A DNA stretch of 64,000 nucleotides from a virus, in the IMG/VR virus record IMGVR_UViG_3300005096_000103, positions 1-64,000 of that record; one strand, written 5' to 3'. The notes beneath the pieces are model-generated. The model saw nothing but the letters and a program-made list of their open reading frames with translations, was not told where the DNA came from and did no database searches. This document shows, in pieces, positions 9,750 through 64,000 of the stretch. Each line of letters begins with the position of its first letter. The stretch's first letter is position 1. A program made the position numbers and the translations under genes.

Positions 9750-10391
9750 TTAGGCGAGCCCAGCGCGCTGAGCGTAGGTCATGCCACTAGTACGACCTAA
9801 CGCTGCGTTAGCCTGCTGGACTGCAGTTGGATTAAACCCAGCAAGAGTCTTAGCAGTGTCGTACACTCCAGGCTCATTGCCCGTAAGAGTATTGACGCGG
9901 TCTCGCATAGTCGGGTTGCGACCGAGCAAAGAGTTGATCGTCTGCATCTTCGAGGGGTTGATGCCAAGTGACGAATAGGCGTTGTCTGCACGGTCCATAA
10001 GAGTTGGATTGCGACCTACGAGTGAGTTGGCCCGCTGCATGAGCGTCGGGTCAAAACCGATAGTTTCATTCGCTCGCTCACGGGCGTCGCCATAAGCACC
10101 ACCAACCGCGTCCTTAGCACTATCATACATACCACCGGCACGCTCCTTCAACGCGTCGATACGTTCGCCAGCGACCTTGCTCCGAACAAAGTTTGCGACT
10201 TTGACATTCGTCTCAGCATCATAAGCAGCAAGCTGCGAAGCTTCGTGGATAGTGACAGCGATTTCATAGTCCTGAGGGTCACCGGAGCTGGCAGCCTTTT
10301 CCATAAACTCGTCCTGGCCAATACCAACACTGTTAAGAGTGTCGACGAAAGCGTTAGCATAAGCCAGCTTGATAAGACTTGCAGTATCCAT
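9750..10391 (-). CDS. Hypothetical protein with ~14-aa NPT repeats
   Basis: 213 aa, six NPTxxxxxNxLxG-like units. Confidence 0.7.
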   Translation of the reverse strand: MDTASLIKLAYANAFVDTLNSVGIGQDEFMEKAASSGDPQDYEIAVTIHEASQLAAYDAETNVKVANFVRSKVAGERIDALKERAGGMYDSAKDAVGGAYGDARERANETIGFDPTLMQRANSLVGRNPTLMDRADNAYSSLGINPSKMQTINSLLGRNPTMRDRVNTLTGNEPGVYDTAKTLAGFNPTAVQQANAALGRTSGMTYAQRAGLA

Positions 10392-10443
10392 GTTGTTTTG
10401 CCTCTATGGGTTGGTTAGCTTTAAGCCTAAGTCGTTCTTAGCT

Positions 10444-13395
10444 TTAAGCTGTGATTCTAAAAACGAGCCTGTTTAGGGGCGCCGGGAAGTCAATATATCC
10501 AGTGAACTCTGCAGTGTCTGCTGCACCCTCCAAGTAGCTTACACTAGTATTGCCGTAGTCTACAATAGGCGCCCCGATTTTAGGGAGTTTTGCAGCCTGG
10601 ATAGAGGCGAGAGTAGCGTCCATCGTATCGAGGAGTGTAGCCAAAGTCTCAGGGATGGCGTTGTACTCGGCGATGAGGCCGTCAAAGGTGTTCTTGAGGG
10701 TAGTCATCGTGTAGTGGTAACACCTCATCATCGAGAGTTCCTGAAGTTCAAGCGTGGTGATGTTCGTCGTGGTTTGGTACGAGATAATTGGTAACGCACC
10801 ACCCTGCTGCTGGGTGACAACCATGTTACCACCTGTAGAGAGCGACTTGATAAGGTCCCGGGTAAAGTAACTATTGCTAAACTTCAGCCCTACAATGCCA
10901 GAAATAGACTGTCGAGTTAACGACTTCTGAACTGGTAACGCAGCAGTAAGCGCCCCGATAGCTACAGCGAGGAACTCACCGCCCATCTCCCCTGACACAC
11001 CGGTTAGTGCGTTCACAACGTTAGAGATACCTGTAATCCTAGGAGGCATTGTACGAACGAGTTGCTCAGTTGCAAGCCCTAGAGTCGCAGCGTTGATAGC
11101 GTCGACTTGCAATGTAGGTGTCAAGTCACGAGAGACTCTGTAGTGATCCGCCGGGCTACTAACGATAGCAAGGTACGTTGCAATCGGGATGTCTTCGTAT
11201 GTATCGAACTGGAGCCTATTATCAGACAAGATCGAATTAACAGGGATACTGTCAACGGGATCGAACGTAGAGTTAGCAGGTCCAGCGGGGGTAGGAGTCT
11301 CGAAGTTGTCACCTACGATGACAGGAGTGAGTCCAGAAGCAAACGTAGCAGTAAGGTCTAGGATCTGACGGAACCCACGTCTCCAAGTCACTGCAGCTGC
11401 TACCGTAGAACTCTGTCGCACACTACGAACGAGAGCGTTGTAGGAAGGAGCAGGGGGAGCTCCAGCAGCGAACGCGCCACCAGCACCCACTACAGTGTAG
11501 AAAGCATAGACACCGTTGGCAGTGAGCTTAGGTCCCCCACTAGTAGCTTGAATACCATTTGGGTTACCTGTAATAGTCATTGAGACTAAGAGGTTAGCCG
11601 CAGCGTTAGCCTCGATAGCATCTTTGACTTCTTGAGCTGTAGAGACAACAGCTGCACCCACATACTCCAACGTGACAGTAATCGCGTTAGCGCCTGTAGC
11701 AATGTTAAGAGGACTCGCAACACCGGGGTCAACAAAAGTAATAGATGTACCGTTACCACTAGGCCCTAGAATCCTGGAATAGAAGGTGAGGTCAGCACCG
11801 ACAGCAATGTTAGCTAAGACACCGTTGGTCTTAGTAGTGATGAGCCAGTAGCCTCCAGAGAGGTTAGGACCTGCGGGCTCGTCTAGATATACAACCTGCC
11901 CAACGCGGTTAGCGTCGAGAGTGTTTGTATCAATAGTATTGACTTTGTTGCCCGCGTTACCGTCAAGCTCAACAAGACCATGTGACTGTACTGCACCGCC
12001 GTTTGGATTTGAGCCATTGGTACTCATAATCCAGAAGAAGTTGTTATCTCCTGCAGCTTCAGCATGCGTCTCAGCTAAGGACAGTCGGTTGGTGTCATAG
12101 ATACGATCAACGGTATACGGACCTAAGTCGTTAGCCATGAACAATGCGTCACCAACAGCGACTCCAGCACTCACAAAGTTACCTGTCGCAGTTGCGAACA
12201 CGTGAACAGGATCACCAGTGATAAGCTCAGCAGTCCCAGCAGACGCAGCTGCTACAACAGAAGTCGTAGGCAGGTCGTCAACGGATGCAATGATCATTCG
12301 GTACACTGCAGATGTCGGAGCGGACAGTGCGAGAGTAGAAGTGCGGTAGATAGCTACAATACTAATGTCCCGAGTTAAGGGGACAATACAGTAGATGGCA
12401 TCGTTGCTCTCGATAGCCGACAGCGCTGCCTGATGCGCTGTAGACCTATCAGTCTGACCATTGAGGTCGTCACCCGTGAGCCCAAAGTAGTTAACCGTCG
12501 TAGTCGTATTCGCCAACGCGATTCTAAGCGCTGCAGCGAGAGGATTACGCTCGTCTACCCTACCCACCAGAGATTCGATCTGACTGTCGTCGTTGATCTG
12601 ACCTACAGCTGCGAGGTCCTGCCGGAGAGACTTGTACTGGATATACACCGAGGAGTAGTTGATAAGTGGAGTCTCAACAACTCCGTCACCTGTAATGTCA
12701 ACAGAGACAGTAGCCCCGCCTTTGATTGTGATTGCGTTACCAGCGATAGACACGAAGTTACTATCGAGAACAACGTCGTTAAGAACTTTCTCGACTCGGA
12801 ATCTGTAAGACCCATTCTGCGCGATAGTAAGTTCACCACCTAATACAAAGTTACTATATGCTCGAACCTGGTTAGCGTTCAGTGTTGAGCCGTTGTATCC
12901 ACCAACTTCTTTGATAGTAACGATGAGAGTGCTACCAAGCCCACCAACGTCTGAGATAACAAGTCGATCACCAGGTCGGACACCGTTAACACCAAAATCA
13001 AATCCACCAGCAGCCGTCGAGAATAAATCCTCATTAGGTGCTGCAGTTGTCACTGTCCCGTCTAAGCGGTTGGTGTTCCCAATTTCAAGATATACAGTGT
13101 CGAGATACGCGATTACCGAAGCGCTATCTAACACAGCACCAGCAGCGTTACTGGGAGGGTCTGCAATAGTTATGACATTGGCACCAGGGATAGGCCTGCT
13201 AACATTACTACCTGTAGTAGCTGAGGAAGCAGCGTCCTTAACGCCATAGGTGCCAATTAACAAAGAGGCCTTGTCTGTCACGTAGTCTAGGATGTGGTAG
13301 GCCGGCCCGACGATCAGGAGGTCCTGCACAGCTTCGACGATGTTAACAACCGTAGACGCGCTTTGCCTATAGATTTCAGTATTAGGTAATGCCAT
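10444..13395 (-). CDS. Tail sheath protein
   Basis: 983 aa; AALSAIESNDAIYCIVPL and C-terminal ELQELSMMRCYHY...IDFPAPLNRLVFRI match the sheath C-terminal domain. Confidence 0.85.
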   Translation of the reverse strand: MALPNTEIYRQSASTVVNIVEAVQDLLIVGPAYHILDYVTDKASLLIGTYGVKDAASSATTGSNVSRPIPGANVITIADPPSNAAGAVLDSASVIAYLDTVYLEIGNTNRLDGTVTTAAPNEDLFSTAAGGFDFGVNGVRPGDRLVISDVGGLGSTLIVTIKEVGGYNGSTLNANQVRAYSNFVLGGELTIAQNGSYRFRVEKVLNDVVLDSNFVSIAGNAITIKGGATVSVDITGDGVVETPLINYSSVYIQYKSLRQDLAAVGQINDDSQIESLVGRVDERNPLAAALRIALANTTTTVNYFGLTGDDLNGQTDRSTAHQAALSAIESNDAIYCIVPLTRDISIVAIYRTSTLALSAPTSAVYRMIIASVDDLPTTSVVAAASAGTAELITGDPVHVFATATGNFVSAGVAVGDALFMANDLGPYTVDRIYDTNRLSLAETHAEAAGDNNFFWIMSTNGSNPNGGAVQSHGLVELDGNAGNKVNTIDTNTLDANRVGQVVYLDEPAGPNLSGGYWLITTKTNGVLANIAVGADLTFYSRILGPSGNGTSITFVDPGVASPLNIATGANAITVTLEYVGAAVVSTAQEVKDAIEANAAANLLVSMTITGNPNGIQATSGGPKLTANGVYAFYTVVGAGGAFAAGAPPAPSYNALVRSVRQSSTVAAAVTWRRGFRQILDLTATFASGLTPVIVGDNFETPTPAGPANSTFDPVDSIPVNSILSDNRLQFDTYEDIPIATYLAIVSSPADHYRVSRDLTPTLQVDAINAATLGLATEQLVRTMPPRITGISNVVNALTGVSGEMGGEFLAVAIGALTAALPVQKSLTRQSISGIVGLKFSNSYFTRDLIKSLSTGGNMVVTQQQGGALPIISYQTTTNITTLELQELSMMRCYHYTMTTLKNTFDGLIAEYNAIPETLATLLDTMDATLASIQAAKLPKIGAPIVDYGNTSVSYLEGAADTAEFTGYIDFPAPLNRLVFRITA

Positions 13396-14185: not shown

Positions 14186-15100
14186 TTAACCCTGGAATTC
14201 TAGCGTGTACCTACTCTCACCTAGAGGGATGAGCTGTTCTACATCTGACCTAGCTAAGAGTGTGCAGGACGTAGTTTGCATAACACTCCGCTTGAACAGG
14301 TGCTGTGAATCTGCGTTATCTACCTTCCATCGAATATTTGAGTCAAGCTCAACTATTATATCCCCCTTCTCTAGCATAGGGACTGGCGGCGCTATAATCA
14401 TAGCAGAACCTATAGAGAGCTTACCACGTGGTGTATCCTGTACATTGATTGGACTACGCTGAACAATTCCGTAACCCTGTATAGGTGTGTGATAACCACC
14501 TGCCCAGGTTGTACCGTAGCAAGTTGAGCAAGTAGACCCTTGGTAGTTAGCCCTGAGGACAGCATCGTAGCATCCTTCTTCTGGGCACCGTAGACCAAAG
14601 TGTCGTTGTTTAAGGTACACAACAGGATCACCTGAGAGTCTTTGAGCTACAGCAGCTCTACGCGCCTTTGCCCGCCACACGAGTATGTTACGGCGGTTGA
14701 ACTTAGGATTCTTAAAGAAGATGCCTTGATTGCGTCTGTCAATCTGGTTAGCTGTAGGGACTACCCCGAGCGCTTGTGACTTGTTGACCTCTACGAGTTG
14801 CAACCCATAGATATTAACAGGGACCGAAGCGACATCCTCAACTTGCCCCTCAATGACTACACGGTAGACGAGGCTACGGACAGCCGACAATACGTTAGGG
14901 TTACCAGCAAGGAACGGATCGTTATAGTAGCTATCCGTCACACCTTCTGCGATAACCTCGAAGTCATTAAACATATTTGAGCTACGTTCAACTCTAAAAC
15001 TGAGTACGCTAGTAGCAGGTGTTATACCGTTGACCTTCCACTGCACGAAAGCTCTACGCTTACGATAGAGCATCACATGCTGTATCTGTACACTAAGCAT
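14186..15100 (-). CDS. Neck/head-closure protein with Cys cluster (putative)
   Basis: CPEEGC...CSTCYGTTWAGGY motif plus C-terminal KGDIIVE...RWKV pattern; position in neck cluster. Confidence 0.5.
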   Translation of the reverse strand: MLSVQIQHVMLYRKRRAFVQWKVNGITPATSVLSFRVERSSNMFNDFEVIAEGVTDSYYNDPFLAGNPNVLSAVRSLVYRVVIEGQVEDVASVPVNIYGLQLVEVNKSQALGVVPTANQIDRRNQGIFFKNPKFNRRNILVWRAKARRAAVAQRLSGDPVVYLKQRHFGLRCPEEGCYDAVLRANYQGSTCSTCYGTTWAGGYHTPIQGYGIVQRSPINVQDTPRGKLSIGSAMIIAPPVPMLEKGDIIVELDSNIRWKVDNADSQHLFKRSVMQTTSCTLLARSDVEQLIPLGESRYTLEFQG

Positions 15101-17652: not shown

Positions 17653-17667
17653 TGCTGACTCCCTATC

Positions 17668-19888: not shown

Positions 19889-20806
19889 TTAGGGGAAGGT
19901 CACGCGAATGACTCCGCCAACGTTGACGAAGGTCACGCCGAGTACACTGTAGGCGTAGAACTCAATCATGTCAGCTTCCTGCTTGATATGCACAGTTGCA
20001 TCTTCAAGGAGAAAGTACTTACCGAGGTACTCTTCTGGTGCGAAGATCCACATTTCATTCGCAGGGAGAATATCAGACTTGATAGTTGTGATAGCGTCAT
20101 AACCCCAGAGCTTAGTCTGGCTCTCAACGCCTTCGTCGTACAAGCGCTCAGCAACACCATCACCTACATCAACTGCATCGAAGAGGAGGAGGTCAACGAA
20201 AAGCTCCTTGGTGAGGAGGATTTTGCCTATGTTGAGTTTCTTAGAGAGGAGAGCCTTGAGACCTGCAACGAGTCCAGCCTTTGACAACGCCGCGGTACCA
20301 GCAGCGATACTCTGCGCGGGGAACGTAGTCACGATATCAAGGATGGTATCGTAGAAGTAGGTGTCTTCGGTGTCTGCCATGTCGAAGACAGAGTTGTCTT
20401 GCAGGATCTTGACGATATCCGACTTGTAGGTCATCAACTCCCACTTGTTCTTCCGCCACTTGTCTGAGGTAATTTTACCAAAGGGGCAGGAGGTTCGTGG
20501 CATGCGGATATACTTGCGGTCCGAGGTCGAAGCGAAGGGTACGAAAGTCGCGTACGACTCAGTCTCTTCTTCGACGATAATCCGTGGTGTGTCGTTGTCT
20601 ACACTCGGATCAAGCATCGAAGCATCCACATTCTGCGGAGTGAAGATCTTTCGTGCGAAGCTGTGTTGGCGGACATAGTCACGGACATAAGAGGTTACTT
20701 GTGCAGACGCCTCCTTAACATTGTCCTCGACTTTCCGCACAAAGTTAGTGTTAATTTCTTTGGCACTCACTTGTGTGGTGACCGTGCGATATGCTGGTGA
20801 CGCCAT
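19889..20806 (-). CDS. Major capsid protein (HK97 fold)
   Basis: 305 aa after protease-scaffold-decoration genes; YVRDYVRQHSFARKIFTP and YFLLEDATVHIKQEAD patterns; C-ending codons suggest high expression. Confidence 0.8.
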   Translation of the reverse strand: MASPAYRTVTTQVSAKEINTNFVRKVEDNVKEASAQVTSYVRDYVRQHSFARKIFTPQNVDASMLDPSVDNDTPRIIVEEETESYATFVPFASTSDRKYIRMPRTSCPFGKITSDKWRKNKWELMTYKSDIVKILQDNSVFDMADTEDTYFYDTILDIVTTFPAQSIAAGTAALSKAGLVAGLKALLSKKLNIGKILLTKELFVDLLLFDAVDVGDGVAERLYDEGVESQTKLWGYDAITTIKSDILPANEMWIFAPEEYLGKYFLLEDATVHIKQEADMIEFYAYSVLGVTFVNVGGVIRVTFP

Positions 20807-21429: not shown

Positions 21430-21873
21430 TTAAGAGTTAAAGAAACTGATGAGACGTTCTCGGGCACTATCAGTCTGCCCCGAACTATCACGGTTATATC
21501 TAGCGTGTTTACGCGCAGCTTTCCCTAGCTGGATACCTGGAGTCCTATGACTGCTAAAGACACCAGCTAGCTTAGCTAGGATCTCAGGAGACAAGCCTTC
21601 AACCTGTCGAATGAGATCTCCTACCTCCATATCTCTCGACGTAGTACGATAGATTTCGCGAGCGACTTTAATTGCGTCGTCTTCTTCTTCAGCGTCTTCC
21701 TCTTCGTCATCACCCTCTTCTTTAAGAGGGGCCATGAGACTCTGCTCTTTCACCTTGGCGACAGACTCTTCGAGTTCGTCAACACGCTCCTCAAGAGCTT
21801 TGATATACTCGTCAGATTTCTCTAGAGCATCCGCGACTTTATTGAAAGCATCAGCAACAGCTTGTGGTTCCAT
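21430..21873 (-). CDS. Scaffolding protein (putative)
   Basis: Coiled coil, acidic linker, C-terminal ARERLISFFNS helix; several KxA motifs. Confidence 0.5.
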   Translation of the reverse strand: MEPQAVADAFNKVADALEKSDEYIKALEERVDELEESVAKVKEQSLMAPLKEEGDDEEEDAEEEDDAIKVAREIYRTTSRDMEVGDLIRQVEGLSPEILAKLAGVFSSHRTPGIQLGKAARKHARYNRDSSGQTDSARERLISFFNS

Positions 21874-22154
21874 TAATTCCCTCCGTTATATAGCGCGGCT
21901 TGGAATCGTCGGAGACCTTTCAAAGCTAGTGACGAATGTCTACTTGCTAGCTTATCAAGCCCCTGTGCTCCGGCCTGCAAAGGTACTACGCTTCCATGTG
22001 ATCGCAAGTCATTTGCAACCTTTCTCATCGAAGAGCCTAGAGAGCTAGTCTCTGTACCTCTCTCTGAGAGTCTAATGCATCCAGCTTCCTTACGCAAGTA
22101 GTGAGCGCTCTTGGCAGCTAAAACGATATTCTGTAGCTCTTGTTCTAGGTCCAT
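21873..22154 (-). CDS. Hypothetical head-region protein (KxA motif)
   Basis: 93 aa, AGGAGG SD; KEAG, KVAN, KLAS. Confidence 0.7.
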   Translation of the reverse strand: MDLEQELQNIVLAAKSAHYLRKEAGCIRLSERGTETSSLGSSMRKVANDLRSHGSVVPLQAGAQGLDKLASRHSSLALKGLRRFQAALYNGGN

Positions 22155-22585: not shown

Positions 22586-22605
22586 AGGTAATCTCCTTAG
22601 AAATC

Positions 22606-23412
22606 CTATGCAAGGATCTCGTTAATCTGAGTAAGGGCATCGTTATACGTATACGAACATGCCTCAGCAAGTTTGTTAATAGCTTCTTCTGTATGTGCTA
22701 CGCCTTGTGGCGAACCTGCAGAGGACAGGTGCGATCGTGCGTCAGCGCCTCCCTGTTCTGCAGCAATTTTAAGCAGTGAGAGAGTCGCGTCTTCACGCCC
22801 AGTCTCAGCGGCACTAGACATAACATCATCAAAAGCATCTTGCCGTCCTAGCGATTCAGCCTGCTTGATAAGCTCTACGTTTTCAGGACCTAGTGCTGCA
22901 ATGCTCGCATCACGTCTACCAGCATCAGCTGCAACTTTCAACAAGAACCCTGCAGCTTCAGCAGCACCAACTTCCGCAGCATCGGCTAAGACACTAGAGA
23001 GGTCAGAGCTTTGTGCAACGTACCCTGCTTGCTTCTGTGTGTAAGCAGGTGCTAGAGTCTGTGCTACACTCGCATACTTATCCATCTCACCAAGGAACGC
23101 TTGGGCTGCAGACGTACCAATTAACGCCCCGGTCTGCATGTCTGCAAGGGTCTCAGCTTGCTCAAGCTCTGCAGCTTGTTTTTGGAGTGCGTATAGTTCT
23201 AAGGAGTTCTGCTGAGGGATCTGTTGTGATGCAACTTTTGTTGAGCTACTAGAGAGTGCTGCAAAAGCTGCAGTAGCTTCAGCCTTACGCTCAGCGAGTG
23301 TAATACTCTGTGTAGGACCTGCGCTGATAACCGCCGCAGCAGTTTTGGTTTCGGTGTGCGTATCGCTTAACCGACTAATCAGGTCGTCTACGCTAAGGTT
23401 GAGATTATGCAT
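22606..23412 (-). CDS. Ala-rich head-region protein built of KxA repeats
   Basis: 268 aa; 9 of 10 lysines are in K-x-A. Confidence 0.8.
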   Translation of the reverse strand: MHNLNLSVDDLISRLSDTHTETKTAAAVISAGPTQSITLAERKAEATAAFAALSSSSTKVASQQIPQQNSLELYALQKQAAELEQAETLADMQTGALIGTSAAQAFLGEMDKYASVAQTLAPAYTQKQAGYVAQSSDLSSVLADAAEVGAAEAAGFLLKVAADAGRRDASIAALGPENVELIKQAESLGRQDAFDDVMSSAAETGREDATLSLLKIAAEQGGADARSHLSSAGSPQGVAHTEEAINKLAEACSYTYNDALTQINEILA

Positions 23413-23457: not shown

Positions 23458-25497
23458 TTATAGATCTAGAGGTATAAAGTTAAAGAGTTGTTGGACTACG
23501 TACCCTAAGTCTCTATCTGCGTAGATAGACTCAGAGCTCGTGTACCTACTAGTACTACCAAAAGTCTCATATGTATTCAACCTTCCTGCGGTCTTTACAC
23601 AGTCAAGTTTTTTAAGTGCTAGAGAATCAAACCTATCTATAGCGACTAGAAGAGTTGTAACAGTTTCGGGATTAAGATACTCCGTATGTTCAGCTATTTT
23701 CCTAGAGGACATAGGTGTATTCCACGGGATCTTTTCACCGGTTACCGTCGTGATCTCCGGGCTCTTACTCTTAAGGAACCGGGACGTAAGGTATGCACCA
23801 CCTGCAGCTATAGCTACCGGGAGAGCAGCTGATAGACTACGTACAGGTGCAGAAGACCTATACTTCCCAAAAGGTAGGTAGTTAGAGCCTATAACAGCTG
23901 CACCTGTTAGACCTGCTGTGATACCTGCGCCTGTCGCCTTAGCCTTAAAATTCTTAAGTCTAGCTTCATCAGCGACATCGCGTGTAGTGACTGAGACATT
24001 CCCTCTTCGATCTCTAGTAGCCAGTGGCTTGATCCTAGAGGTATATGCGTTATCTGCACCAACTATCTTAGCAATTGTGCTACCACCCTGATTCTCGTTG
24101 AATGCCCTGTTAACTAATAGGTCCTTAAGGAGAGCACATTTCTCTCTCTGAGGATACGCAGCTGTAAGGACACTGTCTGACACAGTACTAGTGTCCAGTG
24201 AGTCTAAACCTGTTACAGCTAAGATCTCCTCAAGAAGACCGGCATTATAGGTTGCGTACTTGAGAATCTCAGACCTGGCGTCGAATAAGCTAGATGCTAT
24301 TTTAGCTGAGAAGGGAACGTCATTCTTCTTACAGGTTATCCGATAGATATCAATGAGCGTCGGGAACATGTTAATCTTAGCGAGTGAGGCTAAGACAACA
24401 CTGATGGGTTCCTGCGCGCAGGTGTTGATAAGCTTTTCAGAAAAAGGCTCCTGAGTCTCTAGAGCAGGACGCAACGACTTAACGTTATCAAAGATCATAG
24501 ATCCTGATCTATGATCCATACTTGGTAAGTCGTGTGGCGGACGTACGCCGTGGATTACACCTTGTACTATCTTCTCTATATCCGCGATCTTAAGTAGTTC
24601 ACTTCTTAGACCTGTATTACCTATATTGAAGCTAGCTGTCTTACCCATCGCGTGATGTCCACCTCCAACGGTGTTTACAGTGTAGGTACCTTCGTCCCTG
24701 CCTACGTTTTCACCGTCCGTTGACATCACTTTAAGCGCATAGCCTATACGATCTGCAGGTTTAAATATCCAAGAGATATCAAAGAGGCTAGGGCTAGGGT
24801 TCCATACAATGCAGCTGTCTCCGTTACCTAGGATTTTGCCGAGTCCGTATCGAGGGTCTGAGCCGTTAACGTGTACACAGTACTGTCGACGCGTAGGTGC
24901 ACGGTTAGCACAGACATCACAGATATCGTACTTGATACGACACCCCATAGATACTGCGGGGAACTCCCCGTCCCGTATCTTATCCATGAATGTACGTACT
25001 TTAACATTAGAGTTGTTGACGTCTAAAAGTAGTTCAACCCTCTGCATCTTTTGATTGTAGAACGCCTTACGAACGCTACCTACACTGTTACGGGGATCTT
25101 TGTTCTGGTGGTGAACAAAGTTGTGCGCCATAGTTTCAAAAGACTTGTAATGCTCAGGTAGAGTCTCTCCCCAGTCTAACTCTTTCCTCCCGTTGATATA
25201 CACAGGTCGCGAAGAGAAGCCATCCCCATTGCGGTTCGCACCATAGTAGTCTGACGCACTCATAGCTAGGACGAGTACAGTAGTGTGCCCTGGTTCTGGG
25301 TCGACCGACCTTATAAAATCCAGAGACTCTACACTAGCATACTTCTCTAATCTGACATCCCGTCTATCGATATACCTTACAATAGGCTCAGGAGTATACT
25401 GGAACTCCTTACCAAGTTCGATAGTCTTCACAAACCTTCTGTCGTCTGTGTAGAGTTGAGGACTGCCAGCTGCAAAGCTTAGCTTAGTGGTAGTCAT
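23458..25497 (-). CDS. Prohead (maturation) protease, HK97/assemblin-like, with Cys/His insertion and long C-terminal extension
   Basis: NRNGDGF, FVHHQN, FPAVSMGC (candidate nucleophile Ser), FDISWIFKPAD; CDVC...CVH insertion. Confidence 0.7.
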   Translation of the reverse strand: MTTTKLSFAAGSPQLYTDDRRFVKTIELGKEFQYTPEPIVRYIDRRDVRLEKYASVESLDFIRSVDPEPGHTTVLVLAMSASDYYGANRNGDGFSSRPVYINGRKELDWGETLPEHYKSFETMAHNFVHHQNKDPRNSVGSVRKAFYNQKMQRVELLLDVNNSNVKVRTFMDKIRDGEFPAVSMGCRIKYDICDVCANRAPTRRQYCVHVNGSDPRYGLGKILGNGDSCIVWNPSPSLFDISWIFKPADRIGYALKVMSTDGENVGRDEGTYTVNTVGGGHHAMGKTASFNIGNTGLRSELLKIADIEKIVQGVIHGVRPPHDLPSMDHRSGSMIFDNVKSLRPALETQEPFSEKLINTCAQEPISVVLASLAKINMFPTLIDIYRITCKKNDVPFSAKIASSLFDARSEILKYATYNAGLLEEILAVTGLDSLDTSTVSDSVLTAAYPQREKCALLKDLLVNRAFNENQGGSTIAKIVGADNAYTSRIKPLATRDRRGNVSVTTRDVADEARLKNFKAKATGAGITAGLTGAAVIGSNYLPFGKYRSSAPVRSLSAALPVAIAAGGAYLTSRFLKSKSPEITTVTGEKIPWNTPMSSRKIAEHTEYLNPETVTTLLVAIDRFDSLALKKLDCVKTAGRLNTYETFGSTSRYTSSESIYADRDLGYVVQQLFNFIPLDL

Positions 25498-26817: not shown

Positions 26818-27789
26818 TTACGTCAAGAAGTTGTTGAGTCGTGCAAAGCCTCGAAGGTAGTCTAACGCCTCTGACCTGGCAGCTTTGATGCTAGCGAACT
26901 TTGTAGTTAAGGGACTGCGGCGGAGTACAACGTGTTGAGCCATCTTAGTCTGTGAAGCTTCGTAAGGGATCTTATAGTTGTATGGGCTATACGAGTCTGC
27001 AAGGCTAGACCCTAGGATAGAGGCCTCCTTTGGGTCTGAAGCTTGGTAGTCTAAGAAAACCCTGTCAACTTCAGATTGAGAACATCGTTCTAGATCTTTC
27101 CCTAAAGATACTACGAGATCTGTATACCGAGCACTCGCAATCTTAGCCCGAGTCTCAAGCTCTGCATGTAGACAGCTAAGCTTATCCCTCATATCTAACG
27201 CAGCACTACGCTCTACAACCTCTCTACACTGTCTTTCCTCCTCCTGAGCAGGAGAAGTTTCAGTATAGGATGCCAGCTTAGTTCCAAACTCTGCACCCGC
27301 ATGTTTTTCTAAGACTAGCTTCTCTAAGACTAGCCTCTCCCTCTCGTTAGGTAGTGGACGTGCATTCTCACCAAACACAGGGTCGTAGGTGTAGGAAGCT
27401 AAGTTAGAACTTGTTCCGCTAGTTGAGCTGGCGTACTTGTCAAAGGTCTCGTAGCGAGATACACCGCCTGTCTTAAAGGACGCAGCCTGTTTTGAATTCG
27501 CTGTCTTAGTAGTCTTGGACCCACGCCCTAAAGCTTTAAGTACTTTAGTAGGGTCAACGATATCAAAGTCAACAAACCTATCAGGCTTAGAAGCTGAGGA
27601 CATCTTATCCATCGAGTGCAGGTGTGCCATAGTGTTAACACGCTCAACAAGCCTACGAACCTGCTTCTCGTTAAAGCCTTCACTCCGTGCTTCTTTAACT
27701 GTGGTACTAGCCAGCGGTGTATCACTACTCTCAAACTGTGAGATAGCGCTGTTAGCTATTTTGATGTACAACTTTTCACGGACTTCCAT
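26818..27789 (-). CDS. Putative internal head protein (KxA-rich)
   Basis: 323 aa; at least 9 KxA motifs. Confidence 0.75.
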   Translation of the reverse strand: MEVREKLYIKIANSAISQFESSDTPLASTTVKEARSEGFNEKQVRRLVERVNTMAHLHSMDKMSSASKPDRFVDFDIVDPTKVLKALGRGSKTTKTANSKQAASFKTGGVSRYETFDKYASSTSGTSSNLASYTYDPVFGENARPLPNERERLVLEKLVLEKHAGAEFGTKLASYTETSPAQEEERQCREVVERSAALDMRDKLSCLHAELETRAKIASARYTDLVVSLGKDLERCSQSEVDRVFLDYQASDPKEASILGSSLADSYSPYNYKIPYEASQTKMAQHVVLRRSPLTTKFASIKAARSEALDYLRGFARLNNFLT

Positions 27790-28661: not shown

Positions 28662-31262
28662 CTATACTGTCTCCCCTGGTAATACAAGGCTCTGTTGATA
28701 CATCGAGGCAGTTATGTCGCCTAGATCTTTGATCTGCTTGTTAAGCCGATTAACTTGCGAGTCGAATTCTACTTCCCCCATCTGTTTCCTAAAGTACGGA
28801 GCTTTCATATATAGCTCAAGCAGCGTCCTAGAAAGCTTATCAATAGTATCCTGGATCTGAGGTAAGTAGTCAGACCCAAAGTTATCAATGTTAGTATCGT
28901 TCATGAGACTAGCAATTGCTGTAGCCTCAAAGCTGCCCTCGGGCATACCTTGTTGCTCTGGAGCAGCGTTAGGATCGTTAGGGTCAACAGCGTTAGGGTC
29001 GTTTGGATCTACTGCAGCATTAGGGTCAACAGCATTAGGATCTACTTCTGCGTTAGGATCGTTGGGGTCAACAGCGTTAGGATCCTCCCCTTCAACACCC
29101 ATTTGTTGCTCAGAGTCTACTGCGCCCTCGACAGTATCAGCTGAGATCTCGGGAGCTGTAGTAGGTCCCCACAGGTCTTTCTGCTTTGCGAACTCGCGTA
29201 TCGACGCGTAATCTGTAGGAGGCGCTCCCTGTGCTAGAGCCTCGGCTCTACCCTGTAATAAGTTAACAGCCTCCTCACGTGCATCGAGTATCCTGAGTTC
29301 ATCAGCAAAGGACCGCTGGATCTCCTCGCGCTGAGCTTGGATAATCGTGATGATATCCTGCATCGCTACGTCTAGAGGTCCAGGAGCTTGCTGCTGTTCT
29401 TGCATAGCTACAGCCTGGTTGTAGGCGTCTTGCTCAGCAGCTGGATCTCCTTGAGGAGCGTTCGGATCTTGAGCAGCTGGGTCTCCTTGAGGAGCGTTCG
29501 GATCTTGCTCTTGTGGTACCAGCTCTTGGCCTGCGCCGTCTAACGGTACGTGCTCTGCAGCAGTCTTACAAAGGTGATAGTTCGACCCGACGTAGAAGTC
29601 GAAGCTGGAATGCTTGTACATACGCTCGACTCTTCGCATAACGTTACGCGTCGAAATGTAGCTTAGGTCATGCTCACCGATTAACTTTGCTACAGCTGCA
29701 GACTTTGTGACACGCTTCCCATCGAGGTGGAGTTCCCCGATAGAGTCTTTACTCACATGGACTTCGCACATCCCAGCGCCTAGAGTCTTGTTCTCCAGCA
29801 TCCTGAAGATAGCTGAGGCTCGACCCACTAGCGCACTCAGCGGCTTAACTTCTTTGATGCTGACAAAGAAAAAAGTCTTAGGAATAATAACATCAGCTCT
29901 ATCACTAGCTGTGTTAAAGATCTCGATATCATGAGCAGGATAGGGTCCGCCCCTAGTGATAGTTAACACCTTGTTTGTACCTGGGATCTCAGCTGCGATA
30001 CGTTCTACACCGTCTGAGATTGTGATGCGCTTAACATTCACAGGTAGCGTTGTTGAGTACTGTCCACCTTGTAATAAGACATAGAACCCAAGACCCATCT
30101 TAGTATCAGGGGTAGCCTTGCTGAACAGCTCCTCAATCACAGGGCGCTCGTTGTGGATAACGCCTACAGAGAACTGCCTAGGAATCCCCTGACTCGAAGT
30201 ATAGTAATCCCCCTCAACAGTATAGATGAGTATCTTCCCCTGGCGTATCTCACTTCTAAGATTGCGTAGATCGTTGTTTGCGTAGACAGAGTAGATGTCA
30301 TCGTCGCTAGAGAACCCTGGCAAAGCTTTGCGCATCTTTGTAGATGGTTGAGCTAAATCAATGACTTTGTCTGTGATGAAAGCTTCGGTAACGCTCCCAT
30401 CAGCTTTGTACACTGTATAAGCACCTGGGGGACCAATCGTTGTTAACCTAACGAGGTTCTCCTTAAACACAGCAGTCTTGGTAAGATGCTGGTTACGCTC
30501 GTCTGCTATCACATACCCCTGCTCGTAGATGGATGCGAGAGCTCTAGGGGCTGCAGTCTTGAATACTACTCTAAGAATATTATGTGGTGTAGTGTCATCA
30601 TAGATCCCGACTTGTTCACAGATAGTCTCGCTTGCGAGCTTACTAACCAAGGCACTGTCATTCGCGGCTAGTACACTCGCCAGCTTCTCGTAGCCATACT
30701 TACGCACGACGTACGTAGCAATCTTGTCAGAGTTCTTCATATAGTCTAAGAACGCCAGCTTGATATTATTCGGCGCTTCAGACAGGAAGTAGAGAAGTGA
30801 CTCTTGTGGACGACACGACGCGAAAGAGTAACGCCCTGTCTGTGGAGGCTGCATGATGTGCCGCAAGTCCCTGTCAGTGTTAACACTGTCCGGCATCTCT
30901 CTAGGTGTGCCGACTGAGATTGGGATATCCGTCTGGGCGATGGTGATCCACTTCTTATCAAATGGGACAAACCTCTTCTTCTCTACGAGATACATGACAC
31001 TCGAAGGAAAAAGCTTACCTCCTGAGACAACTGTAGGGACTTGTACTTCTGTACCCCTAAAGACGAGTTGAACGACACCCACCCCAATGTCGTTGTACAG
31101 GTCCACCTTCTCGACTCTAAACCCTGTGATACTCCCAGCTAAGTCTGGGTGCTTCTGAGCAAAATTGTCGTAAGCCATCGTGGCAAACTTTTGCTTAAAG
31201 GACTCCTCAGCATCAGTAGAGCTTTGACCTTCTGAGTACATCTGCGTCTTTGGTGAAATCAT
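28662..31262 (-). CDS. Large putative internal virion protein with acidic DPNA repeats
   Basis: 866 aa; at least 8 KxA motifs; QDPNAPQGDPAA x2 and (DPNA)n low-complexity tracts. Confidence 0.8.
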   Translation of the reverse strand: MISPKTQMYSEGQSSTDAEESFKQKFATMAYDNFAQKHPDLAGSITGFRVEKVDLYNDIGVGVVQLVFRGTEVQVPTVVSGGKLFPSSVMYLVEKKRFVPFDKKWITIAQTDIPISVGTPREMPDSVNTDRDLRHIMQPPQTGRYSFASCRPQESLLYFLSEAPNNIKLAFLDYMKNSDKIATYVVRKYGYEKLASVLAANDSALVSKLASETICEQVGIYDDTTPHNILRVVFKTAAPRALASIYEQGYVIADERNQHLTKTAVFKENLVRLTTIGPPGAYTVYKADGSVTEAFITDKVIDLAQPSTKMRKALPGFSSDDDIYSVYANNDLRNLRSEIRQGKILIYTVEGDYYTSSQGIPRQFSVGVIHNERPVIEELFSKATPDTKMGLGFYVLLQGGQYSTTLPVNVKRITISDGVERIAAEIPGTNKVLTITRGGPYPAHDIEIFNTASDRADVIIPKTFFFVSIKEVKPLSALVGRASAIFRMLENKTLGAGMCEVHVSKDSIGELHLDGKRVTKSAAVAKLIGEHDLSYISTRNVMRRVERMYKHSSFDFYVGSNYHLCKTAAEHVPLDGAGQELVPQEQDPNAPQGDPAAQDPNAPQGDPAAEQDAYNQAVAMQEQQQAPGPLDVAMQDIITIIQAQREEIQRSFADELRILDAREEAVNLLQGRAEALAQGAPPTDYASIREFAKQKDLWGPTTAPEISADTVEGAVDSEQQMGVEGEDPNAVDPNDPNAEVDPNAVDPNAAVDPNDPNAVDPNDPNAAPEQQGMPEGSFEATAIASLMNDTNIDNFGSDYLPQIQDTIDKLSRTLLELYMKAPYFRKQMGEVEFDSQVNRLNKQIKDLGDITASMYQQSLVLPGETV

Positions 31263-31302: not shown

Positions 31303-32337
31303 TTAGGCGTAGCGCATGTGGAGGTCACGCATATAACGCTCATGATCTGCAACGTTAGAGTTGCGGAAGTTTTCAACAGCAGCAAGCTTAACCTCTGGAG
31401 TCATACCGAGAGGCAGCTGGTTCCACACGTTAGTGTAGTAAGCCTCTGCGACTTTAGCTTCGCGATTAGGGTGTGGATACTCAGCGCCTACTACTGCACT
31501 AGCTGGAACCTTGGAACTGATTGTGGCAGACCCCGGATTAGGGAGGACTGCGTAGCCAGTAGGTTTGTTCTTCAGCTCTTGTTTGCCTTCAGCACTGTTA
31601 GTATTTTCCATCGTGTTTTGCTGTGAAGCACTACCCGAAACGATATTGGCACTAGTAGCAGGCATCCCCATCGCCATCTTCGCAAGAGCGTTGGTTACCT
31701 CGTTGAGAGGCGCTTCTGTCGGAGCAGCAGGAGCTAGAGCTGCAGCCTCAACTTCATTCTGTGCAACACCCGCAACACCTGCAGGAGCTAACGGGTGCTT
31801 AATCGTGATACCTGATCGAGCTTCCTGAGGGAGGTTCTTCACCGCCCCGCCAGGTGCCACAGCAGCATATCCGATAGGCTTTCGAGACAACTCTAAGAGT
31901 GCCTCAGCACTATTCGAGTTAGCCAGTGTGTTCTGCTGCCTGGGATCGTTGTCTACAATAGTACTGCCTAAGAGAGCTTCCTGCTCCATAGCAATCTTAA
32001 CTGGGTGGAGAATGTCTCCCATGACAAGACCAATGTCCGAGCCAAATAGCGCGGGACCTGCTCCAGCGATCTTACGACCGCCACCTTGTTCAGCAAGCGC
32101 CTTATCAATTGTAATGAGACACTCTGCAATCTTGATAACCGCTTCGTTAGATGGGCGGGAGTGCCGGTAGTCTTCCCCAACCAACGATAGAGGACCCTCG
32201 AAGTCTACAGATGCCGCAGCGTAATCAGCTGCGTCTCTGAGATTTTGGACGCTAGCAATCTTAGTGATAGATCGCTGTTGTAAGTTCTCAGCGATAGCTC
32301 GGGCAACGATTCTACGGTCAACGGGGGCATTGTACAT
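31303..32337 (-). CDS. Putative internal head protein with internal duplication (KxA-rich)
   Basis: 344 aa; 7 KxA; QQNTLANSNSAE..KPIGYA / QQNTMENTNSAE..KPTGYA. Confidence 0.8.
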   Translation of the reverse strand: MYNAPVDRRIVARAIAENLQQRSITKIASVQNLRDAADYAAASVDFEGPLSLVGEDYRHSRPSNEAVIKIAECLITIDKALAEQGGGRKIAGAGPALFGSDIGLVMGDILHPVKIAMEQEALLGSTIVDNDPRQQNTLANSNSAEALLELSRKPIGYAAVAPGGAVKNLPQEARSGITIKHPLAPAGVAGVAQNEVEAAALAPAAPTEAPLNEVTNALAKMAMGMPATSANIVSGSASQQNTMENTNSAEGKQELKNKPTGYAVLPNPGSATISSKVPASAVVGAEYPHPNREAKVAEAYYTNVWNQLPLGMTPEVKLAAVENFRNSNVADHERYMRDLHMRYA

Positions 32338-59127: not shown

Positions 59128-59496
59128 ATGTTATATCGGCTTATCAACAACCGAACAGACCTAGGGCGTATAATCGTCCAGTATATTACCAAAGACCGCG
59201 GTATCTATATAGTAGGAGTAGTTGATACCCGAGGTGCGACACCAGATGACCTAGTCGTACTCGAACATCCATGTTTATTTAAGCGTTACTACGTGCCAGG
59301 GGATGACGGATCTACTGAGAATATGCGGATAGACATATGCCGCCTGATAGTGGGCAGCGACATGCAAGTGTGTCTCCGACAGAGCGAATACCTCGGAGTC
59401 GCGATATTAGACCCTACGAGTGAGAGTTTCTACCAGGAATGGCTTAGAGGACACGTTACAAAAAATACGCCTGTTACTCAAAATACACCGGTGTAG
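59128..59496 (+). CDS. Hypothetical protein
   Basis: 122 aa, 2 nt after the polA stop. Confidence 0.65.
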   Translation: MLYRLINNRTDLGRIIVQYITKDRGIYIVGVVDTRGATPDDLVVLEHPCLFKRYYVPGDDGSTENMRIDICRLIVGSDMQVCLRQSEYLGVAILDPTSESFYQEWLRGHVTKNTPVTQNTPV

Positions 59497-61118
59497 GGCT
59501 CAAGGTCCTGCTCAGCGGGGGTTCCATAGAGTTTAATCACGCCCATACCTATCCTAGCAGTAATCCAACAAAATATCTGAGCGTGTAGCGCGTCGTCTGG
59601 GGCACCGGGAGACGAGTTCCAGATCTTACGCCCATGTCCCCCACGTGTCACCATCGCAAACACTGAGAGGACGTGGTCAAACACATCTTCGCAGAGATTT
59701 TTGTTTGGGTAATAGATTGCCTGTCTTTTTACCTCAAGGAAGAAGGAGTCTATAGCCGCAGTTCTAGAGACCATAATCCTATCGGGTCCCTGGGTGAAGT
59801 GTTGGAGAGCGCCCGTATACTGGAGCTGGATAACTCTCTCATGACCAAACTTCTCTCTGAGGTAGGAATTAGCATGCGCTCCAACTCCTGCATCAGCCCC
59901 TACCATACGTACTTTATACAGATGGAGCAGTACTACTATCTCTTCTAGGTCACGGTGAGGCTCCCCTGTAGGGTATACCTTAAAAAACAGCGTAACGAAG
60001 TGTTTGTAACCAGGGGCTACTCCAAATATCCACAGAACCGTATGACTCTTTGACGCAAACCCTCCACCTGACCAATCGATTCCTGCGTAGACCTCAAGCT
60101 CTCCAGCTTCGTTTTCGGTGACGTTATTAAATATCCCAGGAGGTGGCTCTCCTAATCCTTGCAATATCATATAGTCTCTACACTGCCTCTCAAGGTCTGA
60201 GCGCTCAATGAAGCGTGAGCCTTTAGCAGCTGGGACACCTAAGACTTCATTTAAGACACTGATATCATCATAGCTGTCTAGCTTATGCCTAAGGATTCTC
60301 CATTCACGTGGTATCTCATTATTCTTCGGGAGCATTAACTGAGATACGTGATACCCCCATAGCTTGTCATCGTCATCCTGACCTTCTATGAGATTCTGTG
60401 CGTACCAGAATCCTAAGCGAGGCTCTAGAGACTTACCACACTTCTTACATATTGGACCTTTGAGCCCGACGTTAGCTACAGAGTTTAGAACGTTGTGTTT
60501 ACTGCAACCTGTACACTTAATAAGCCAGATACACTGTGTACTCTGGCTCCAGAGCCAATTGACTGGATTCTCCAGAGTCTTGTGTGTCCCCGCGTAGTAT
60601 TCTTTCTTGTAAGGAGACATCGCCATAGTCTCGTTAACAACAGGGACCACGAGCTTATAGATGATATCCTGCATCTCATCGTACTTTATAGAATCAGTCG
60701 AGTAACCACGTATCCTATCTGGGTCATCGTATGTGTAGGTAAAATAGTTCTCGCTCCCATTTTTGTAGTACTTATCCCATACACTAGGCTGGATTATTCT
60801 AGTGATATCTTTGATACCAGGGGAGTGTTCATAGAGTTTCTGGAGTCTAGACTTAGAAAACAGCTTCGTTTGTTTACGAGATGGGGATACGTACATCGTT
60901 TTGAAGTGTGCAATAAGAACGCTGTCGAGTAACATGTCAACAGCACCAGTGACAGACTTGAAAACCTGTCTAGCTGTGCACATCAGTAGTCTACGGTGTC
61001 CTCTGTCGAGTATGTCGTAATAAAAAGGTGCCCCGTCGAGTCTATAGGGGTTGCCCTCTAACACAAGTAAGGACTCTGCCATCTCACTTCTGGTAGCGTC
61101 TACAACTATCTCACGCAA
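59478..61118 (-). CDS. terL: Terminase large subunit (lambda GpA-like)
   Basis: ARQVFKS Walker A variant, RIRGYSTDSIKYDEMQD Walker B, CTGC...CKKC Zn finger, nuclease AGIDW / GADAG / DDALHA. Confidence 0.85.
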   Translation of the reverse strand: MREIVVDATRSEMAESLLVLEGNPYRLDGAPFYYDILDRGHRRLLMCTARQVFKSVTGAVDMLLDSVLIAHFKTMYVSPSRKQTKLFSKSRLQKLYEHSPGIKDITRIIQPSVWDKYYKNGSENYFTYTYDDPDRIRGYSTDSIKYDEMQDIIYKLVVPVVNETMAMSPYKKEYYAGTHKTLENPVNWLWSQSTQCIWLIKCTGCSKHNVLNSVANVGLKGPICKKCGKSLEPRLGFWYAQNLIEGQDDDDKLWGYHVSQLMLPKNNEIPREWRILRHKLDSYDDISVLNEVLGVPAAKGSRFIERSDLERQCRDYMILQGLGEPPPGIFNNVTENEAGELEVYAGIDWSGGGFASKSHTVLWIFGVAPGYKHFVTLFFKVYPTGEPHRDLEEIVVLLHLYKVRMVGADAGVGAHANSYLREKFGHERVIQLQYTGALQHFTQGPDRIMVSRTAAIDSFFLEVKRQAIYYPNKNLCEDVFDHVLSVFAMVTRGGHGRKIWNSSPGAPDDALHAQIFCWITARIGMGVIKLYGTPAEQDLEPYTGVF

Positions 61119-63255: not shown

Positions 63256-63263
63256 CTAGGCTC

Positions 63264-64000
63264 CTAAGCGTAAGCTTTAAGCTGTGTGGCCAATGCTTTC
63301 TTCTGAGGGAGTGGGAGTGTAGGTAAGACCTCTTTCAGTTTCTGAGGGTCAACCTCACCACTACTATCCGTGATATGCTCGACAAAAGATCCTCCCAGGA
63401 TGTCCTCGTAGAACCCTTTATCTAATGCATAGAGTTTTCTCCAAGGAATCAATAATCCTGCAACGTCTGCTGATTCTTCAGAAAGCTTATCAGAATTGAA
63501 TACCGCAAGTTGAGGAGATAGTATACCTTCGTATTCGCTAAGTGAGTGCGTCTCATCTGCAAGACCAATAGTCTCAACGATACTAGATAGCTTAGGTCTG
63601 CTACTAAAGTAGCCTGTAGTAGTCATGCTATTCTTAACTGCATTCGCCAGCTTCTCATATGTCCCCTCTCCCTCCTTATCTCCTTGGAGGTAGCAGGCCC
63701 CAATTCTAGCTTCAAGATGACCTACAAGGGTTTCAACATGGCACCGGGTAACCCCCGCGTGCTTATACACGTCTGTAGGGAGGTCATCAGTACTCATCTG
63801 GTATTCAGCAGCCCTCTTCACGATATTAACAGCCGCGAGTTTAACAGTAGCAGGGAACAATCTCGACTGGTTTTCCAATAGAACGTGCGCTGACTGTTTA
63901 ACAAGGTCAGGAGTGTCAATCCTAAGCCGCTGCATGTCGGGGATTGCGTAGAGGTATTCGTCAGAATTCTCTGCTGCAGACGCGACCTTAACTGCGTCTG
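63264..64000 (-). CDS. Hypothetical KxA-rich protein, 5'-truncated by the window edge
   Basis: The frame stays open from 63935 to the edge (DAVKVASAAENSDEYLYAIPD-M...); KVAS, KLAA, KRAA, KHAG, KLAN. Confidence 0.75.
   Translation of the reverse strand, partial: DAVKVASAAENSDEYLYAIPDMQRLRIDTPDLVKQSAHVLLENQSRLFPATVKLAAVNIVKRAAEYQMSTDDLPTDVYKHAGVTRCHVETLVGHLEARIGACYLQGDKEGEGTYEKLANAVKNSMTTTGYFSSRPKLSSIVETIGLADETHSLSEYEGILSPQLAVFNSDKLSEESADVAGLLIPWRKLYALDKGFYEDILGGSFVEHITDSSGEVDPQKLKEVLPTLPLPQKKALATQLKAYA

Follow-up and report, generated by a model that had tools for sequence, protein, structure and literature searches.

Does the tripeptide K-x-A, which recurs in the proteins encoded around the head protease gene of this phage, constitute the cleavage code of that protease? 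The window, i.e. the whole stretch of DNA analyzed here, comprises 64,000 nucleotides of a 138-kb genome, and a sequence-only reading of it had suggested that the motif is common to the protease and some 15 orphan proteins and that it marks the sites where the former cuts the latter or else acts as a head-targeting signal. We found no paper describing a K-x-A motif in the literature. The head-module genes and their neighbors are as follows, K-x-A counts being given against the number expected from shuffles:

19889..20806, minus strand: major capsid protein (MCP) with an HK97 fold, 305 aa, assigned from a fold match and from the MCP annotation in phage Arash
21430..21873, minus strand: small orphan gene, 147 aa, 5 K-x-A versus 1.1 expected (p 0.003)
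21873..22154, minus strand: small orphan gene, 93 aa, 4 versus 0.6 (p 0.002)
22606..23412, minus strand: scaffold-like protein, 268 aa, 21% Ala, encoded between the protease and capsid genes, 9 versus 2.1 (p ≤ 0.001)
23458..25497, minus strand: head maturation protease polyprotein, 679 aa, 9 versus 3.2 (p 0.002)
26818..27789, minus strand: orphan head-module protein, 323 aa, 12 versus 2.4 (p ≤ 0.001)
28662..31262, minus strand: orphan head-module protein, 866 aa, 9 versus 4.1 (p 0.016)
31303..32337, minus strand: orphan protein adjoining the RNAP genes, 344 aa, 7 versus 2.5 (p 0.004)

We compared the number of K-x-A observed in each of the 145 ORFs of the 138-kb genome with that found after shuffling the amino acids of each protein separately. 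This comparison with a shuffled background bears out the proposed over-representation: nine ORFs are enriched, seven of which lie in an 11-kb block around the protease gene, and eight ORFs reach p ≤ 0.005 where about 0.7 would be expected. Within the head block, K.A ranks first among 1600 gapped residue pairs (62 versus 26.5 expected, z 7.8), and in the head module z is 7.7 for K.A and 8.7 for K.A[AS]; outside the block, it is absent from the top 12 pairs. A recount returned exactly the nine tetrapeptides that had been named in the scaffold-like protein, which account for 9 of its 10 lysines, as well as the seven copies claimed in 31303–32337, whereas the minima put forward for 26818–27789 (nine), 28662–31262 (eight) and the protease (eight) were on the low side. 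The number of orphans sharing the motif had been set too high: about eight are robustly enriched, in addition to the protease, and about half of those listed are not. More specifically, among the genes credited with further copies, 21430–21873, 21873–22154, 9750–10391 and 63264–64340 are enriched, while six others are at chance level (16716–17105, 2 versus 0.7, p 0.15; 25499–26086, 4 versus 2.0, p 0.13; 35442–35972, 4 versus 1.6, p 0.07; 32366–33535, 1 versus 3.4; 15100–16716, 2 versus 2.5; 22217–22585, 1 versus 1.2). Likewise, the supposed rarity of K-x-A in the RNAP chains holds for the C-terminal half of β′ (33570–35438, 0 versus 4.4 expected) but not for the β–β′ fusion (35972–40585), whose 12 copies are at chance level (10.5 expected).

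The proteins concerned are helical and rich in Ala (up to 21%), and the protease profile weakly matched designed coiled coils made of KIA heptads (E 0.01), as might be expected if K-x-A were a by-product of composition or of the way in which Ala-rich helices, amphipathic or coiled-coil, are designed (K-I-A-A-L-K-Q-like heptads). We regard this explanation as extremely improbable. Composition is controlled for by the shuffles and, in counts pooled over 51 proteins from 8 genomes, K.A occurs 401 times versus 124 expected, whereas R.A (100 versus 125), E.A (141 versus 176) and K.S (44 versus 67) are not enriched, and none of Q.A, K.G and K.T exceeds its expected count. Furthermore, x is often T, Q or E, the heptad d position lacks a hydrophobic residue, and the spacing of the motifs displays neither heptad periodicity nor mod-7 bias; since the codons used are also mixed, the signal lies at the protein level. 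Finally, nearly all lysines of the scaffold-like protein belong to the motif (10/11, 12/15, 10/10, 8/9 and 14/14 in orthologues) across the GC range of 48–69% over which the motif is conserved in the clade, and the signal is missing from the head module of a more distant Gordonia phage used as a negative control (K.A z 1.8).

Conservation among relatives is extensive. Positional orthologues are enriched in six uncultured relatives and two cultured groups (Salmonella phage Arash and Vibrio phage D69), and K.A is the top pair at each of 8 related loci, Arash and D69 among them (z 5.3–9.2). Several sites of the scaffold-like protein are aligned in 5–7 of 8 sequences, and the orthologues of 31303–32337 carry 8–10 K-x-A each, those at alignment columns 126, 239 and 372 being common to 6–7 of 7. 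Enrichment extends to the orthologues of 26818–27789 in 7 relatives, among them Arash (gp220), and to the positional counterparts of the small genes at 21430..22154 in L002, L003, L005, L006 and Arash (gp225). The copies in 28662–31262 are clustered at residues 168–262, where five fall inside a 70-aa stretch (p 0.001), and at 520–566. Virion preparations of Arash were found to contain the orthologues gp218, gp220, gp222, gp223 and gp225, gp218 (the counterpart of 28662–31262) being abundant and gp220 being classified by MS as a ‘structural protein’ (PMC10585845). Note that the coverage reported in that proteome (86.6% for the MCP, 100% for the scaffold-like gp223) appears unreliable and is uninformative on processing (PMC10585845).

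What kind of protease would read such a motif? The product of 23458–25497 matches the head maturation protease family phrog_18299 (E 7.6e-6) but no Pfam family at E ≤ 0.01, hence neither Peptidase_S77 nor S78. Its AlphaFold model comprises a disordered N-terminus (residues 1–51, pLDDT < 50, rising above 75 from about residue 52), a fold spanning residues 62–246 or so, a disordered linker (247–293, pLDDT < 50) and a helical C-terminal part (294–679). The top structural match of residues 62–246 is T4 gp21 (5jbl_A, Z 9.9, rmsd 3.0, 131 aa aligned), which scores far higher than unrelated structures, followed, for residues 68–255 approximately, by the PRV, VZV, KSHV, HSV, HCMV and EBV proteases (Z 5.3–6.7). 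As modeled, the catalytic domain thus has the fold of T4 gp21 and the herpesvirus assemblins, the kinship with the latter being one of fold only. H130 and S183 (in VSMG) are invariant in 28 homologues, and so is a CxxC...CxH cluster (C193/C196/C207/H209). The T4 prohead protease gp21 (MEROPS S77) cuts after Glu in (L/I)-x-E, and its gene, like the one studied here, lies in the head module beside scaffold and MCP genes; the order protease, Ala-rich scaffold-like gene, small genes and HK97-fold MCP is kept in 8 related loci. Unlike gp21, the present protease is 679 aa long and has a long helical C-terminal part, the CxxC...CxH cluster and no Pfam S77 match.

The positions of K-x-A in the protease are consistent with self-processing. 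Two sites stand out:

25333..25344, minus strand: K52-Y-A54-S55, predicted site of self-processing at the N-terminus, where the disordered leader gives way to the protease fold
24631..24642, minus strand: K286-T-A-S289, predicted release site, within the disordered linker that follows the fold

In the 28 homologues, K52 and A54 do not vary and S55 is at least 90% conserved, and 113 of 114 homologues have a K-x-A just before the fold (residues 31–52). K303-I-A lies close to the second site, and linker columns 291–335 hold at least one K-x-A in all 8 aligned homologues. A further copy, K635-T-A, is located 45 aa from the C-terminus; a K-x-A 15–60 aa from this end is present in 90 of 114 homologues versus 26.8 ± 4.1 expected. 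Herpesvirus assemblin/pUL26 (MEROPS S21) cuts (V/L/I)-x-A|S at the release and maturation sites of a protease–scaffold fusion. The protease studied here is similarly fused to a helical part, with the motif placed, like the herpesvirus R and M sites, after the fold and near the C-terminus; it differs by the extra site before the fold and by the existence of a scaffold-like protein encoded by a separate gene. Altogether, every computational test run (specificity, conservation, positions, folds) favors the prediction that the protease cuts at K-x-A, and we consider it probable that K-[V/T/L/I]-A followed by A/S is the cleavage code of the prohead protease that the phage itself encodes.

The T4, phiKZ-type and herpesvirus proteases obey a P3-x-P1 rule, and by analogy the scissile bond would follow the Ala. 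The residue at +3 is A or S in 41% of the K-x-A of enriched proteins versus 17% of chance K-x-A elsewhere (p 2e-4), and the extended motif reads [L]-[E/T]-K-[V/T/L/I/Q]-A, then A/S, less often E/G. The most informative position is the Lys, which would also suit a cut right after this residue, K|x-A, with the Ala as a P2′ determinant. There is a precedent: HK97 gp4 (MEROPS S78) removes the delta domain of gp5 at K103|S104. Such a cut is nevertheless very unlikely here: T4 gp21 and the herpesvirus assemblins, the closest structural relatives, recognize P3-x-P1 and cleave behind the second of the two specified residues, the preference for A/S at +3 mirrors the A|S bond of the herpesvirus sites (where P1 is likewise Ala), and the protease matches no Pfam family, including that of the HK97-type S78 enzymes. 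The specificity would differ from those of its relatives in that Lys and Ala are the residues specified: T4-type [LI].E is not enriched in the head module (z 1.2), and herpesvirus-type [VLI].A, with V/L/I instead of Lys at P3, is depleted (z −2.9; −1.4 for [VLI].AS).

The capsid protein, whose match with the HK97/encapsulin fold reaches a Z of 16–17, contains a single candidate site:

20705–20716, minus strand: K31-E-A33-S34 of the capsid protein, the sole K-x-A of this protein

K31 and A33 are invariant in 95 of 95 homologues, 64 of which have no other K-x-A, and they precede the part that aligns with the cleaved HK97 Prohead II. Two observations count against a cleavage here, namely that residues 1–30 are conserved nearly like the remainder (0.69 versus 0.76) and that a helix, rather than a loop, is predicted to begin at the site. 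As in HK97, an HK97-fold capsid protein would lose an N-terminal segment at a site that includes a Lys; unlike in HK97, there is no delta domain, the segment being 33 residues long instead of 103, and the protease fold is closer to T4 gp21.

Two enriched genes are located away from this region:

9750..10391, minus strand: orphan, 213 aa, 5 K-x-A versus 1.2 expected (p 0.001–0.005)
63264..64000, minus strand: 3′ part of an orphan gene (358 aa) that extends past the window end (63264–64340), 8 versus 2.7 (p 0.003–0.005)

The latter lies 40 kb from the head module. Its two detectable homologues (56% and 29% identity) have 10 K-x-A each versus 2.0 and 2.9 expected (p 0.0005), which backs the earlier proposal that the motif points to substrates encoded far from the head genes. 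The N-terminus of 9750–10391, MDTASLIKLAYANAF, is similar to the leader of a small-gene array at 119373–121901 of the genome: the five array genes and 9750–10391 start with M..L..h-K-L-A-Y..(A/S)-Y, then diverge, and four of the five array genes have a second K-x-A at residues 23–34. The fixed place of K-L-A in this conserved leader recalls a targeting peptide, and enrichment and conservation suit binding as well as cutting; K-x-A might then be a short linear motif that stays uncut and recruits proteins into the procapsid, by targeting them to the head or docking them on the scaffold or protease, its multiple copies providing avidity. We deem this unlikely, given the sites that border the protease fold or fall within the disordered linker, the single invariant site near the capsid N-terminus and the 9–14 evenly spread sites of the scaffold-like protein, which fit dicing (a cut after each motif Ala would yield pieces of 15–36 aa). 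The substrates of T4 gp21 are gp22, gp67, gp68, gp23, gp24 and internal proteins with capsid-targeting leaders; there, the leader coincides with a cut site, so targeting is compatible with cleavage. The likeness to T4 is twofold: one short P3-x-P1-type motif is common to the capsid, scaffold/core, protease and proteins encoded elsewhere, and small, otherwise unrelated proteins share a conserved leader at the N-terminus, with the motif at its end.

If K-x-A is the cleavage code, then head maturation may proceed as follows. The protease would be made as a 679-aa polyprotein and enter the procapsid together with scaffold and core proteins, where it would (i) free itself by cutting at K52-x-A54, at K286-T-A in the linker and near the C-terminus; (ii) take about 33 N-terminal residues off the capsid protein at K31-E-A33; (iii) dice the scaffold-like protein, which is rich in Ala, into peptides some 15–36 residues long; (iv) trim or cut other head-internal proteins, including 9750–10391, 63264–64340 and the products of the small KLAY-leader genes at 119–122 kb. 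The motif-bearing substrates would reside inside the head, and one might speculate that cleavage releases ejected effectors.

The prohead proteases of phiKZ-like phages (phiKZ gp175, SPN3US gp245) cut at (A/S/G)-x-E. These giant phages package a multisubunit RNAP in the virion and process many head-internal proteins at one tripeptide (PMC5694885, PMC10052503). Similarly, the present phage is large and a block of RNAP and head protein genes adjoins its protease gene; unlike them, its genome is only 138 kb, its HK97-fold capsid protein is a minimal 305 aa, and [ASG].E is not enriched in the head module (z −0.1). No phiKZ-like phage was found among the sequence matches in phage databases. The β–β′ RNAP chain is packaged in Arash, and here it contains K-x-A at chance level only, which implies that the tripeptide is insufficient alone and that accessibility or flanking residues must matter.

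Cleavage at K-x-A would be new in its specificity, although the kind of system is known, and it would be the third specificity in the gp21/assemblin protease superfamily, with Lys at P3 and Ala at P1. The code would also tell which orphan genes encode protease substrates, and predict their mature ends, across a large and almost wholly unannotated clade of 116–204-kb phages that is represented in metagenomes by more than 100 protease homologues and, among cultured phages, by Salmonella phage Arash and Vibrio phages D69, D148 and D181. It is directly testable in Arash, which is cultured and for which a virion proteome already exists. More tentatively, a single K-x-A code may combine, in a tailed phage, a herpesvirus-like assembly logic, in which a protease fused to a scaffold-like C-terminal part frees itself at release and maturation sites (P1 Ala, P1′ A/S), with T4-like leaders that load and trim a modular head cargo; this combination is possible rather than likely. 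The cargo would then include companions of the virion transcription apparatus and small Gly-rich membrane-active proteins.

The window takes in the first 64 kb of a phage genome lying on one contig of 138,359 bp, for which no match by DNA similarity was found among known phages; the window contains helicase, exonuclease and ParB genes, and orphan genes fill its long minus-strand block. PHROGs provided names for the protease, NUDIX, helicase, exonuclease, ParB, TerL, ATPase, RNR and sigma proteins and for almost nothing else, and among ten head-module proteins the sole Pfam match was the C-terminal half of RNAP β′. The product of 23458–25497 (679 residues) matches the PHROG 'head maturation protease' (E 7.6e-6), while that of 19889–20806 (305 residues) shares 36% identity with the protein annotated as major capsid protein in Salmonella phage Arash and is, in its predicted structure, an HK97/encapsulin-type capsid fold (pLDDT 83; Z 16–17). 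Within the structural gene block, 15100–16716 (minus strand) encodes a 538-residue protein with a central NUDIX hydrolase domain, and a like arrangement is seen in L001, the head locus of an uncultured relative (PF00293 on a 446-residue gene). The following features are also used here:

59478–61118, terminase large subunit
33570–35438, minus strand, part of a two-chain multisubunit RNA polymerase, Rpb1 domain 5 match
Genome 119373–121901, minus strand, small paralogous gene array of five genes (locus L009)

The sequence-only reading had proposed that a Lys-x-Ala (K-x-A) motif shared by the protease and about 15 orphan proteins is a candidate maturation or cargo code. ORFs were translated (55 in the window, 145 in the genome), and each product was compared with 1000–2000 shuffles of the same protein. 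K-x-A exceeded this amino-acid-shuffled background in nine ORFs at p ≤ 0.016 and in eight at p ≤ 0.005, where about 0.7 were expected. Of these nine ORFs, seven surround or include the protease gene (21430–32337), and the remaining two are 9750–10391 and 63264–64340. For the other genes on the orphan list (32366, 15100, 22217, 16716, 25499 and 35442), counts do not depart clearly from chance. In the scaffold-like protein (22606–23412), nine of the ten Lys residues fall in K-x-A, in exactly the tetrapeptides that had been picked out by eye. When all 1600 residue pairs with gaps 0–3 were scanned without bias, Lys-x-Ala (K.A) ranked first in the head block (62 versus 26.5 expected, z 7.8); among the other 133 proteins, C..C leads and K.A stands outside the top 12. 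The motif is absent from the RNAP β′ C-terminal half (33570–35438; 0 versus 4.4 expected) and from ParB (49262–50428, plus strand; 0 versus 4.1), which may reflect motif avoidance in some proteins. Note that the Asp-Pro dipeptide is the second-most over-represented pair in the head-module proteins at 21430–32337 (26 versus 10, z 5.2), and is also in excess in three relatives, L001, L005 and L006 (z 5.1–5.6).

Homologues of the protease (n = 190) are found mostly on contigs of 100–200 kb. We compared six loci from metagenomes or MAGs (protease 33–41% identical, GC 54–69%) and those of the cultured phages Arash and D69 (Vibrio), which share a gene order comprising RNAP, orphan proteins, the protease, an Ala-rich protein, small genes and the capsid protein. 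The same positional orthologues are enriched in K-x-A in all compared loci, and K.A is the top-ranked pair in eight loci out of eight (z 5.3–9.2). For the gene that follows the protease, the Lys residues lying within K-x-A number 10/11, 12/15, 10/10, 8/9 and 14/14 in relatives. The more distant head module of Gordonia phage Stormageddon (protease domain 29% identical) displays no K.A signal (z 1.8). In alignments, some sites are common to five to seven of the eight sequences and others turn over, as would be expected for cleavage sites in poorly structured substrates.

The signal is also specific. In a pool of 51 proteins from the eight genomes, K.A occurs 401 times versus 124 expected; R.A (100 versus 125) and E.A (141 versus 176) show no excess, and Q.A, K.S, K.G and K.T do not exceed expectation. 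Informative flanks are Leu at −2 (2.8-fold), Glu/Thr at −1, Val/Thr/Leu/Ile at x, and, at +3, Ala/Ser (45%) and next most often Glu. Ala/Ser at +3 is found in 41% of the copies in enriched proteins versus 17% of chance copies in the same genome (Fisher p 2e-4). The codons of the motif Lys and Ala are mixed and background-like, which rules out a DNA-level motif, and inter-site spacing has no heptad bias, which, together with the lack of R.A and E.A enrichment, rules out a coiled-coil origin. Given this specificity, the flanks, the mixed codons and the non-heptad spacing, the signal lies at the protein level and is neither a coiled-coil by-product nor a charge effect.

What might such a motif encode? 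Since the T4, φKZ-type and herpesvirus enzymes follow a P3-x-P1 rule, we infer by analogy that Lys occupies P3 and Ala P1, the cut falling after Ala; cleavage could, as a rival placement of the scissile bond, occur after Lys instead. The motif of the T4 prohead protease is L/I-x-E and that of the herpesvirus protease V/L/I-x-A|S. φKZ-type prohead proteases recognize A/S/G-x-E (PMC5694885, PMC10052503). The motifs of these characterised relatives are not enriched here ([LI].E, z 1.2; [ASG].E, z −0.1; [VLI].A, z −2.9), as opposed to K.A[AS] (z 8.7). Because the RNAP β–β′ fusion chain (35972–40585) contains K-x-A at chance level (12 versus 10.5), accessibility or flanks must add to the specificity. 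We found no description of a Lys-x-Ala prohead protease motif in the literature; what would be new is a clade-wide Lys-x-Ala specificity, prohead proteases with a shared motif being already known as a kind of system.

The protease has no Pfam family match, a pattern scan across viral contigs returned none either, and in a profile search against sequences in the PDB the only match, a weak one, was to designed coiled coils. In a Foldseek search with the full-length model, helical proteins crowded the top ranks and gp21 came 22nd, a situation resolved by re-alignment: the best superposition of the protease domain is T4 gp21 (5jbl_A: Z 9.9, rmsd 3.0, 131 residues), followed by six herpesvirus proteases (Z 5.3–6.7). 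H130 and S183 (V-S-M-G) are invariant among homologues. In the model, residues 1–51 are disordered, about 52–246 form a confident fold, 247–293 are a disordered linker, and the C-terminal part is helical. K-x-A recurs along this layout: it is present at residues 31–52 in 113 of 114 homologues (K52 and A54 being invariant and S55 nearly so in 28), at least once in the linker of all eight aligned homologues (K286-T-A-S in the window protein), and 15–60 residues from the C-terminus in 90 of 114, versus 26.8 ± 4.1 in shuffles. On the proposed reading, the polyprotein would process itself before the fold, after the fold and near the C-terminus. Residues C193, C196, C207 and H209 (24871–24921, minus strand; consensus C-S-I-C-G-N ... 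Y-C-x-H) are invariant in 28 homologues and look like a zinc-binding insert within the gp21-like fold, of which we know no equivalent in T4 gp21. Five homologues (P0063, P0064, P0070, P0101 and P0108; 906–984 residues) carry intein/homing-endonuclease domains (PF14528, PF05203, PF13403, PF14890), so the head protease gene is intein-interrupted in some relatives.

The capsid protein contains a single K-x-A, K31-E-A33, whose cleavage would remove about 33 residues. K31 and A33 are invariant in 95/95 homologues, E32 is 97% conserved, the following residue is variable, and this is the only K-x-A in 64 of the 95; in the Arash capsid protein, gp226, K-E-A falls at residues 27–29. The site precedes the shared fold, since the alignment of cleaved HK97 Prohead II begins at capsid-model residue 30–34. 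Against cleavage, the N-terminal 30 residues are conserved (0.69 versus 0.76 for the rest) and K31 lies at the start of a predicted helix. The scaffold-like protein would be diced: hypothetical cuts after each Ala yield pieces of 15–36 residues in the window and of 4–36 residues in six of the eight genomes. The proteins encoded at 26818, 28662 and 31303, the larger orphans, would be trimmed or split into parts.

The motif had also been expected to flag substrates far from the head module, and this is supported by gene 63264–64340, 40 kb from the head block, with eight K-x-A versus 2.7 expected. Only two homologues of this gene were detectable (56% and 29% identical), and each has ten K-x-A, versus 2.0 and 2.9. 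The five array genes and 9750–10391 have a common N-terminal leader, M..L..h-K-L-A-Y..(A/S)-Y, which resembles T4 capsid-targeting leaders, with a second K-x-A at residues 23–34 in four of the five array genes. The bodies of these small proteins are divergent and often Gly-rich and hydrophobic, those of the array being Gly/Ala-rich and hydrophobic with basic tails. These small proteins are candidates for leader-targeted head cargo, possibly membrane-active.

In Arash, gp218, gp220, gp222 (the protease), gp223 and gp225, orthologues of head-module proteins, were found in virion preparations, in a study with a high base rate of 'structural' calls (116/272), and RNAP β and β′ were the most abundant species (PMC10585845). 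The paper and its supplement provide a feature table and coverage values but no peptides, and coverage is uninformative on processing (PMC10585845). The sigma-70-type factor at genome 80235–81341 (plus strand; 17235–18341 of locus L008) begins with an extension of about 135 residues, rich in Pro, Ser and Lys, in which K-x-A is not significantly enriched (5 versus 3.6 expected); the corresponding Arash protein, gp10, was detected in virions and has no such extension. Finally, the RNAP gene is separated from the following gene by the stretch 40586–41987, where ORFs of 113–135 residues overlap and are open on both strands; one of these possible genes, 40926–41333 (plus strand), contains five K-x-A.
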